A DNA stretch of 64,000 nt from positions 5,322 through 69,321 of the forward strand of contig JBAXLH010000001.1 of NCBI GenBank assembly GCA_037134875.1, in the 5' to 3' direction. Origin of the DNA: a bacterium. GTDB taxonomy: Bacteria > Patescibacteriota > Minisyncoccia > Phycocordibacterales > DATDWN01. Shown here in pieces: positions 30,902 to 32,365 of this stretch. The first letter of the stretch is position 1, and every line of letters starts with the position of its first letter. The position numbers and the translations under genes were made by a program. Below the pieces are notes generated by a model. The model was not told the origin of the DNA. It searched no databases and saw only the letters and a list, made by a program, of their open reading frames with translations.

Positions 30902-32365
30902 CTACTTGGTGGTTTCGGTCTCGGCTTCGAGCTTCCACCATGTGTTGAACAAATTTTCCACAAACTTGCCAATGGTGTACCAAATCGCCATTTTGTGGAG
31001 ATGCCCAGCAGTGAAAATCTTCACAGTCCGCTCGGACACCTGCGCCTTTTCAATCTTTTCTTCCCACTCGATGATCTCGCGGGAAAGATTATCACGAGTC
31101 TCCTCTTCCATTTCGGTCACGCAGGCACGGAACCATGCGTAGAGACCGTCGATGGAGACAATCTTGAACTCGTCCGGCTGAATGGTCACTCCGTGACGAC
31201 GGAAGAACACCTCGAGCCGGCGATATAAAAAAGTCAGCTTGTCGTCGGAGACGATCGGCTCCGGATGAGCCAAGCGGTACTTCGCCTTTGCGGCGAGCAA
31301 ACGCTGTCCCCATTCCGAATTCGGTCGACGATTGAACTGGTCACCGAGGAGGAAGAGCGCCTGACGGCAGTCTCCGTTCCAGTTGGCAACTTCATTATTA
31401 CGACGACGCGGAAAGCGTCCGTCTTCCAAGACGTGCACTCCGCAAAACGCGCGGAGCTTCGCCTTGGTCTCAAACCGACGGATGTCAATCACGGCGCCGA
31501 TAATGCGCGATGCGATCTTGGGACCGCACCCTTCGATCGGCTCAAAAATGACGCGATACACATTCAACGCATCGCAGGCTTTTTCCAGATCCCGCTCGCG
31601 CTTGGCTTCTTCCGAAGAGAGCGCGGCGAAAATCTTGTCATTAGCCTTGGCTTCATCGGAAGCCTTTTCCAAATCGCCTTCGGGGAACTTGCCCTCGGGC
31701 GAACAGAAAATCGTACCAATAAGATGCGTGCGCAAACGCTGTCCGCACGCCATACGCGCCTTCATCGCATCCACCCGATTCCGCAAACATTCACGGAGCC
31801 AGATGAGATCGAGGTCACGCGGGCCAACTTCATAAAAGAGCGATTTTTCGCTCGAAAAAAGATTGGCCAGAAGTTCGGCATCGCCGTCTTCCTTCTTTTC
31901 CACACGCTTGCCCTTGAGGACAAACGGAGGAATACGGAACACTTTAGCGTCGATTTCCTGACCACGACGCGCGAGGGCAAAAGCGAGATTGTCGCCCGAA
32001 CCCCCGAGAATCATGGAGATGTTATCGCCCGGCTTGAGGCCGTCATAGGCCGCCGGCACATACGTCGCGAGTTCATAGGTCTTGCCATCCTTGCGGATGA
32101 GCGAAGCCGGTAACTCTTCATAATTCTCTTCCTTTTTCAATTTGCGCCACTGCACGTGGTGCGTACAAAAAGTGGAGAGTTCGTCGCCTTCCTCCACCTT
32201 ACGAAAGTTCACCGGAAACCGGTCGAGCACAAAGTCGAGCTCGTCGGTCTCCGTCTCCAGCTGGAGACTCCTCGTCTCGCCGTTTTCGAGGATCACGACC
32301 TGCGTCGGCCGTGCCTCTCCTTCGGCAGTCTTCTTGATGCGATGCCTGATACCAATAATGCGCAT
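30902..32365 (-). CDS. IS110-family-like protein (DEDD/RuvC-like transposase N-domain plus Transposase_20-like C-domain), divergent, GC-rich foreign gene
   Basis: 487 aa from the ATG at 32365-32363, with the SD AAAGGAGGT 5 nt upstream. The N-terminal MRIIGIRHRI…ISMILGGSGDNLAFALARRGQEIDAKVFRIPPFVLKGKR…KEDGDAELLANLF follows the IS110 DEDD domain pattern (vGiD…vvlEatGsY…aGhevvvvnP…KtDkiDA). The C-terminal IEGCGPKIASRIIGAVIDIRRFETKAKLRAFCGVHV…GDCRQALFLLG follows the Transposase_20 pattern (ipGiG…rF…qlaayaGL…Gn..LR.aLy.aa). GC content and codon usage (CGC/CGG Arg) differ sharply from the flanking genes. Confidence 0.7.
   Translation of the reverse strand: MRIIGIRHRIKKTAEGEARPTQVVILENGETRSLQLETETDELDFVLDRFPVNFRKVEEGDELSTFCTHHVQWRKLKKEENYEELPASLIRKDGKTYELATYVPAAYDGLKPGDNISMILGGSGDNLAFALARRGQEIDAKVFRIPPFVLKGKRVEKKEDGDAELLANLFSSEKSLFYEVGPRDLDLIWLRECLRNRVDAMKARMACGQRLRTHLIGTIFCSPEGKFPEGDLEKASDEAKANDKIFAALSSEEAKRERDLEKACDALNVYRVIFEPIEGCGPKIASRIIGAVIDIRRFETKAKLRAFCGVHVLEDGRFPRRRNNEVANWNGDCRQALFLLGDQFNRRPNSEWGQRLLAAKAKYRLAHPEPIVSDDKLTFLYRRLEVFFRRHGVTIQPDEFKIVSIDGLYAWFRACVTEMEEETRDNLSREIIEWEEKIEKAQVSERTVKIFTAGHLHKMAIWYTIGKFVENLFNTWWKLEAETETTK

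Follow-up and report, generated by a model that had tools for sequence, protein, structure and literature searches.

The tasR gene and its flanking guide arrays

In the 64-kb window (the whole stretch of contig JBAXLH010000001.1 that was analysed, 64,000 nt), a gene for a 487-residue protein lies on the minus strand between two arrays of stem-loop RNA units that are encoded on its own strand (Table 1). A preliminary description, made from the sequence alone, had called the protein IS110-like. The protein is the TasR of a TIGR-Tas system and not an IS110 transposase: the TIGR-Tas family model passes, the IS110 model fails, and the best structural match is the TasR of a Thermoproteota archaeon (TaTasR; PDB 9MTY). 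The 27 guide-RNA units (tigRNA units) that flank the gene, which had gone unnoticed in that description, are the decisive evidence for this assignment. TIGR-Tas systems were defined as Nop-domain proteins (TasA, TasH and TasR) encoded beside arrays in which box C and box D enclose two short spacers per unit; spacers A and B pair with opposite DNA strands (Faure et al., Science 2025; PMC12045711).

Table 1. Coordinates of the TIGR-Tas locus, in window positions and in the order of reading on the minus strand
Feature	Position	Strand	Basis or detail
Promoter-like site, TTGACA-16 nt-TATTAT	33045..33072	(-)	11/12 consensus matches, 16 nt upstream of T1
Upstream TIGR array, 10 units (T1-T10)	32413..33029	(-)	structural scans
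T1	33029-32979	(-)	
T2	32968-32915	(-)	
T3	32915-32860	(-)	
T4	32848-32795	(-)	
T5	32795-32744	(-)	
T6	32724-32673	(-)	
T7	32671-32618	(-)	
Spacer-free hairpin H1, between T7 and T8	32577..32616	(-)	repeat search
T8	32582-32524	(-)	
T9	32517-32470	(-)	
T10	32458-32413	(-)	
Shine-Dalgarno sequence of tasR, AAAGGAGGT	32370..32378	(-)	4 nt upstream of ATG
tasR coding sequence, nuclease-dead TasR, 487 aa	30902..32365	(-)	NF052498, Foldseek to 9MTY, 690 homologues
RuvC-like domain, residues 1-175, with dead active site (R7, acid-free 115-124, E159, D162)	31841..32365	(-)	model and alignments
Insertion of ~74 aa, residues 37-110, between β3 and β4 of the RuvC-like fold	32036..32257	(-)	model
Coiled coil and Nop-type RNA-binding domain, residues 182-487	30905..31822	(-)	profile, alignment, model
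Downstream TIGR array, 17 units (T11-T27)	29767..30893	(-)	structural scans
T11	30893-30844	(-)	
T12	30829-30782	(-)	
T13	30717-30662	(-)	
T14	30658-30607	(-)	
T15	30605-30556	(-)	
T16	30523-30472	(-)	
T17	30470-30417	(-)	
T18	30386-30320	(-)	
T19	30320-30268	(-)	
T20	30266-30215	(-)	
T21	30201-30150	(-)	
T22	30149-30098	(-)	
T23	30078-30027	(-)	
T24	30025-29972	(-)	
T25	29935-29880	(-)	
T26	29871-29822	(-)	
T27	29820-29767	(-)	
Intrinsic terminator after T27	29713..29747	(-)	10-bp stem with 6 G-C pairs, then TTTTTGTAT

Both strands of the window were scanned with a strict pattern (a stem of 7 bp or more, ~12 nt, a hairpin of 4 bp or more, ~12 nt, the stem). On the minus strand, 18 units lie in the ~1.75 kb of tasR flanks, compared with 20 chance hits in the remaining ~60 kb. 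A relaxed scan with inspection gave the 27 flanking units, all of which were checked in the sequence. In each unit a terminal stem of 5-10 bp encloses a central GNRA hairpin, with 12 nt on either side of the hairpin, ~9 nt of which are variable, and the typical length is 50-54 nt. As an example, T11, which begins 9 nt past the tasR stop codon, reads GGAGUG-C UU AUAAUGAUG U G-UUCGAAAGAA-C UA GAUAGACGU U G-CACUCC. The stems of neighbouring units abut or share 1 nt.

In the alignment of 16 canonical units, every unit has U at three of the four spacer borders, and at the remaining border U is at least 90% conserved. In these units 99.4% of the cells are paired, the closing pairs covary (C-G in 11 units, U-A in four and U-G in one), and double-sided changes number 51, compared with 14.7 +/- 3.0 in shuffles and 2-9 in controls with slid partner columns. 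The units were selected by their terminal stems, so that the pairing of these stems is partly circular; this does not apply to the central hairpin or to the covariation. G-U pairs and GNRA tetraloops (GAAA, GCAA, GUGA) appear only in the minus-strand reading, all four units compared on both strands are predicted to fold more stably on the minus strand, and the predicted unit folds have z-scores of -4.3 to -4.7. Rfam assigned no family to the array, the sole CRISPR-DR match being noise (21.4 bits, gathering score 36). A CRISPR array was rejected, because no identical direct-repeat family was found and there are no cas genes among the neighbours.

The terminal stems belong to a handful of types (GGGCGAGAU, UGAGGGUAA, GUGCGGAU, GGCAGAC, AGCGGAC and UUUGCUUGC). 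Several of the types recur as a repeated block at 29906-30082 and 30351-30527 (445 nt from start to start), with a third copy upstream of tasR at 32552-32728. The hairpin H1 has paralogues at 30378-30417 and 29933-29972; hairpins of this type are part of the repeated block, and their 3' arm overlaps, and would compete with, the 5' stem arm of the unit that follows (T8 in the case of H1). Some 9-nt half-spacers also recur, namely T1B and T13B (8/9 identical), T3A and T20B (8/9, across the A and B slots) and T7A and T17A (9/9). Three spacer pairs are thus at least 8/9 identical where 0.19 are expected, and two of the three, T3A/T20B included, connect units of different stem type.

Six homologues of the protein (~50-65% identity), from other metagenomes, likewise have arrays on both sides of the gene and on its strand, and their loci occupy different chromosomal neighbourhoods. 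Four or more of the stem types GGGCGAGAT, TGAGGGTAA, GTGCGGAT, GGCAGAC, AGCGGAC and TTTGCTTGC are common to the window and each of the loci L005, L006, L129 and L130. L128 shares three (GTGCGGAT, GGCAGAC within CAGCAGAC, and GGGCGAGAT), and the most distant, L007, shares one (GGCAGAC within TTTGCAGACG). The stem types recur in the closer genomes, and the segments between the stems differ. An H1 element is present in L128 too, between a GGGCGAGAT-type and a GAGGGT-type unit.

The tasR coding sequence runs from the ATG at 32365 to the TAG at 30902-30904, and the protein begins with MRIIGIRHR. A longer 513-residue version with a TTG start was rejected, because it enters the upstream repeats and the homologues all start at an MRIIGIRHR-type N-terminus. 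The strings quoted in the preliminary description were all found: MRIIGIR (with R7), ISMILGGSGD (residues 116-125), KKEDGDAELLA (157-167) and HVLEDGRFPRRR (311-322). Its argument that a strong Shine-Dalgarno (SD) sequence and an intact gene speak against decay is borne out, and a pseudogene was rejected, by the intact length, many invariant residues, 690 homologues and a confident fold (mean predicted local distance difference test score, pLDDT, of 92.5). The ratio of nonsynonymous to synonymous substitutions that it proposed as a check was replaced by conservation and intact length over the 690 homologues, because the nearest of them are only ~67% identical in protein sequence and synonymous sites are saturated at that distance. 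Four contigs encode an identical protein; their arrays are 100% identical to one another and hence offer no variation to compare. The named homologues come from Patescibacteria (Paceibacterota, Uhrbacteria, Wolfebacteria, Doudnabacteria and Parcubacteria). The G+C content of tasR is 0.544 (0.66 at third codon positions), compared with 0.403 for the host flanks in the window, and it lies 8-18 points above that of the host flanks in all seven loci (the window, L005, L006, L007, L128, L129 and L130). Unlike tasR, the arrays are host-like in base composition.

Family, fold and catalytic positions of the protein

The protein scores 130 bits against the NCBIfam model NF052498 (TIGR_Tas_endo, "TIGR-Tas system RNA-guided endonuclease"; cut-off 100, residues 190-370), and it stays below the cut-offs of the IS110 model NF033542 (40.8 bits, cut-off 140) and of NF051857 (13.4 bits, cut-off 180). 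TaTasR is the best PDB sequence match, with an E value of 1.3e-9 for the single protein and 2.9e-22 for the family profile; the family profile reaches an E value of only 0.017 against the bridge recombinase IS621. An AlphaFold model was built from 44 homologues. When it was used in Foldseek, TaTasR came first (E 1.4e-9), followed by the bridge recombinases IS621 and ISCro4 and then by TasH, and nothing beyond these was significant; the probability is 1.00 for TasR and TasH, and the alignment to TaTasR has 396 columns of a 294-residue chain.

In the model, the RuvC-like part consists of β1 (residues 3-7), β2 (21-27), β3 (30-36), β4 (115-119), β5 (141-145) and a helix (162-172), and the insertion between β3 and β4 contains a helix (39-46) and four strands (50-56, 72-75, 90-93 and 96-108). 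The long helices 182-221 and 244-266 correspond to the coiled-coil dimerisation pair, and the last helix (453-486) stops one residue short of the C-terminus, with no C-terminal Tyr/His loop. The N-terminal RuvC-like (RNase H fold) domain is recognised in the predicted structure, at the level of the fold only: the sequence profile of this part, with the insertion removed, returned only noise from the PDB, consisting of Rossmann-type GxGxxG proteins. A 55-residue fragment of TaTasR, used as a query for full-length active TasR proteins, gave no match. The C-terminal domain carries a lineage-specific helical insertion at residues ~369-452 (30905-31261), which is common to the distant homologues P0019 and P0059. 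The nearest homologues are without it and have another, strand-rich insert at the same site, which suggests that insertions have been exchanged between TasR lineages.

It is barely credible that the gene is a degenerate or domesticated IS110 transposase, its flanking repeats being unrelated or the remnants of element ends and a bridge RNA. The Pfam model Transposase_20 does pass weakly (26.2 bits, cut-off 21.3), with DEDD_Tnp_IS110 below threshold, public records carry the label "transposase", and the family aligns with IS110 proteins over residues 121-357, as described below. The protein indeed shares with IS621 (PDB 8WT6) homologous RuvC-like and Nop-like RNA-binding domains and, by prediction, an RNA guide that reads two DNA strands. 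However, the NCBIfam models favour TIGR-Tas over IS110, the protein has no DEDD tetrad and no Ser nucleophile, and there is one copy of the gene in the window. In place of a single bridge RNA, the flanks hold 27 covarying units of fixed geometry, and in six other genomes, at different chromosomal sites, the gene is likewise found with arrays. Bridge RNA, element ends, signs of mobility and other transposon features were not seen at the locus. The "transposase" label, which most of the named homologues carry (NCBI and JGI records; P0001, P0016, P0017, P0022 and others), is likely a systematic mis-annotation of nuclease-dead TasR proteins, and the present assignment corrects it together with the NCBIfam name "endonuclease".

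A large clade of TasR proteins from the candidate phyla radiation (CPR) has been described with expanded RuvC domains, no C-terminal Tyr/His processing loop, tigRNAs that flank the gene on both sides, and an inter-spacer tigRNA loop that is a hairpin (Xu et al., bioRxiv 10.64898/2026.09.09.750476). The cryo-electron microscopy structure of one of these proteins, CsTasR from Candidatus Staskawiczbacteria, has R8 and V126 at the first two catalytic positions and an ~80-residue β3-β4 insertion, and it holds double-stranded DNA; in PateTasR, R91 fills the catalytic pocket. Purified complexes of CsTasR and PateTasR did not cleave DNA in vitro, and such complexes confer guide-dependent, reversible repression of transcription in E. 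coli (Xu et al.).

The alignment of the 44 homologues was compared in hhalign with an alignment of five IS110 transposases from plasmid records, IS621 among them. The result (probability 95.8%, E 7.7e-9, TasR residues 121-357) upholds the register that the preliminary description had set by eye. Its reading of Arg at the first DEDD position also stands: the counterpart of IS621 D11 would be R7, an equivalence that rests on the shared Gly-Ile-Asp/Arg motif, on the position at the end of β1 in the model and on R8 of CsTasR, not on sequence alignment. The Gly of this motif is invariant in the TasR family and the IS110 set, and position 7 is R, V, S, Q, T or A in the 44 homologues, and Asp in none. 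The counterpart of E60, the second RuvC acid, is located within NISMILGGSG (residues 115-124) because G63 of IS621 pairs with G121; this segment is acid-free in every register, in agreement with the reported loss of the second-position Glu. The retention of two downstream acids was read correctly, but D102 and D105 of IS621 pair in hhalign with E159 and D162, not with D160 and D162. The nucleophile S241 pairs with D315 both in hhalign and in a hidden Markov model alignment to 8WT6, and the protein thus lacks a catalytic Ser, as had been proposed. Among the 44 homologues, G122, S123 and G124 are invariant, G121, D162 and D315 are at least 90% conserved, and position 159 is variable. Because the substitutions are shared by these homologues, the dead site is a family trait and not the result of decay.

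Predicted mode of action and targets

The locus matches the published description of the CPR clade point by point, in R7, the insertion, the C-terminus, the two-sided arrays and the central hairpin. We consider it highly probable that it is a stem-loop TIGR-Tas system of this Patescibacteria clade, the product of which would bind DNA under RNA guidance and block transcription without cleavage. The earlier suggestion of a non-catalytic RNA- or DNA-binding derivative would then be essentially right, judging from the experiments on close relatives. The novelty claimed for such a protein is no longer tenable: inactive TasR proteins have been predicted in some Patescibacteria, together with a second, stem-loop type of array (Faure et al.), and studied by Xu et al., and the locus opens no new category. 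It provides a clean and complete example of a nuclease-dead TIGR-Tas system, with 27 guides, a promoter-like site, a terminator and a chromosomal setting, and it can serve as a test case for the natural targets of such systems and for the growth of stem-loop arrays.

Family membership, fold, dead active site, and the array with its strand and structure were read directly from this locus, and its operation can be proposed by analogy with CsTasR, PateTasR and TaTasR, from which dimerisation, processing, DNA binding, non-cleavage and repression are taken. Transcription of the minus strand would pass from the promoter through ten tigRNA units, tasR and seventeen further units to the terminator, and the precursor RNA would be cut to single units. 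In each unit, one box C/box D pair (consensus C-U-U/A ... U-G) would close the terminal stem and another the central GNRA hairpin, and these pairs would frame two 9-nt guides, spacer A and spacer B. TasR would dimerise through its coiled coil and bind one tigRNA through the Nop-type domains. Spacer A would pair with one strand of the DNA and spacer B, in the neighbouring half-site, with the opposite strand. The resulting 18-bp target would read as spacer A and then the reverse complement of spacer B; we infer this geometry from two published features of cleavage, the 8-nt 3' overhang and the "C-5" rule. The predicted target of T16, for example, is CCGCGGCGTAGAGCAGAA. With the first two catalytic residues missing from the RuvC-like domain, the DNA would be bound uncut and its transcription blocked, in the manner of a natural dCas9.

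Among characterised proteins, CsTasR resembles the present TasR in the Arg at the first RuvC position, a non-acidic second position, the big β3-β4 insertion and a Patescibacteria host, a likeness drawn from its published description and not from sequence identity. It differs in length (547 residues, compared with 487 here) and in having Val126 where the present protein has a Gly in LGGSG; compared with CsTasR, the helical insertion at ~369-452 and the 27 units derived from a repeated block of stem types are features of this locus. TaTasR shares the architecture of RuvC, coiled coil and Nop domain as well as the dual-spacer guide logic. It differs in having four acidic catalytic residues, with D11A abolishing activity, in cutting both strands to leave 8-nt 3' overhangs, in lacking the β3-β4 insertion and in using a dual-repeat array that is processed to 36-nt tigRNAs (Faure et al.). 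By analogy, dCas9 and Cas12k would be comparable as RNA-guided DNA binders without cleavage, but their fold is unrelated, and the present system has no protospacer adjacent motif, a guide split over both strands and no adaptation genes.

Some results weigh against a DNA-binding, non-cleaving TIGR-Tas system, on the side of the protein and on that of the targets. The first 120 residues gave no sequence alignment to IS110 or TaTasR, even without the insertion (hhalign of the N-terminal part against IS110, 4% probability), so that the equivalence of R7 and D11 is not shown by sequence. All 44 homologues have D114, and D125 is at least 90% conserved among them; in the model both are situated, with D162, near β4 and the helix that bears the last two canonical residues, so that catalysis, residual or relocated, keeps a low probability. 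Outside the array, the 64-kb window gave no match to the predicted geometry with two or fewer mismatches, and counts of weaker matches, in a comparison that also covered the opposite geometry, equalled those of five control arrangements. The predicted target of T7/T17 gave more than 120 matches in a scan of 185,579 genomes, all of them unrelated and with the source assembly absent, in agreement with the published remark that 18-nt targets yield many false positives. The short flanks of L005 and L006 contained no targets. Xu et al. state that natural targets are unestablished for most systems.

The conserved acids, together with the endonuclease name of the NCBIfam family, are what an active RNA-guided nuclease would have in its favour, in which D114, D125, E159 and D162 form a new metal site and DNA is cut as by TaTasR. 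We regard this as quite improbable, because CsTasR and PateTasR carry the same substitutions and did not cleave, the catalytic pocket is filled by Arg in PateTasR, Arg takes the first position in CsTasR, and R7, H8 and R9 are conserved in the present family where an acid would be expected.

Still less probable is an action like that of a box C/D small ribonucleoprotein, in which the dead RuvC-like domain would recruit a partner enzyme, or the guides would pair with RNA such as Shine-Dalgarno regions or the 3' end of 16S rRNA. The Nop domain and the box C/D logic are common to small nucleolar ribonucleoproteins, and the inactive N-terminal RuvC-like domain of Nop5 docks fibrillarin (Faure et al.). 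Nop5 likewise has a coiled-coil dimer and box C/D-framed guides. The spacers are also biased towards GGAG, GAGG and AGGA: these motifs occur 10 times in the sense and once in the antisense direction in the window spacers (3.9 +/- 1.8 in within-spacer shuffles), and 34 times in the sense and 10 times in the antisense direction in 256 spacers of six arrays (the window, L005, L006 and L128-L130). However, this bias comes partly from an excess of G over C, and no partner gene is conserved beside tasR across the seven loci. Fibrillarin and L7Ae genes are absent from the called neighbours, the guides are 9 nt long here, and those of characterised Tas systems pair with DNA, not rRNA. In addition, CsTasR holds double-stranded DNA and represses transcription, and TaTasR was inactive on RNA substrates (Faure et al.).

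If the locus is a DNA-binding TIGR-Tas system as preferred here, its guides could be aimed at host gene starts instead of invaders, as a native multi-guide form of CRISPR interference in a reduced Patescibacteria genome, though we think this unlikely. The SD-like spacer motifs weakly hint at it, as do the half-spacers shared by otherwise unrelated units and the stable chromosomal place by a cell-division cluster in two genomes (see below). A further weak hint is the arrangement SD-N3-10-ATG, which is present in 10 of 128 predicted targets, compared with 2.0 +/- 1.4 in shuffled and 3.4 +/- 1.6 in A/B re-paired sets; examples are T7 (AAGGAGATCAAATCAATG) and T24 (CAGGAGGCTGCATGACTA), and six of the ten belong to GGGCGAGAU- or GUGCGGAU-type units. 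The control arrangement A+B gives eight such hits, nearly as many as the predicted geometry, and the signal is therefore mostly motif bias; together with the empty target searches, this speaks against regulation of host genes. The spacer-motif, half-spacer and G+C leads leave the verdict on the locus unchanged.

Transcription signals and chromosomal setting

Promoter-like sites in the region are no more numerous than in shuffles, and the TTGACA-16-TATTAT site is accordingly a consensus match only; the intrinsic terminator after T27 is a strong one. The simplest reading of these signals is that the arrays and tasR would be carried on one transcript, as a unit of ~3.3 kb. Between a bPH_2-domain gene and the array promoter lies a perfect inverted repeat of 32 bp (33088-33119/33175-33206), the 55-nt loop of which contains a second promoter-like site. 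The motif GCAAAAATTTATCCG, with up to two mismatches allowed, has four copies where 0.42 are expected, at 1432-1446 (-), 28184-28198 (+), 28284-28298 (+) and 33159-33173 (+); one copy is in the loop of this inverted repeat and two are between mraZ and rsmH.

The locus is situated among chromosomal housekeeping genes. In the window, tasR is immediately upstream of the division and cell wall (dcw) cluster mraZ-rsmH-ftsI-murE (~26000-29700), and in the Paceibacterota locus L129 (6054-9041) it is likewise immediately upstream of ftsI-murE. On the other side of tasR, both loci have mreB and a gene for an rseP-type peptidase (PF02163). A 257-nt direct repeat is present in two copies of 71% identity (34154-34410 and 34541-34797), about 1.1 kb past the array. 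No rRNA genes are present in the window. A group I catalytic intron was found at 45042-45318 (+) (Rfam RF00028, 70.2 bits). A weak tRNA match at 45013-45104 (19.8 bits), with no ARAGORN call, overlaps its 5' edge, which suggests a tRNA gene split by the intron.

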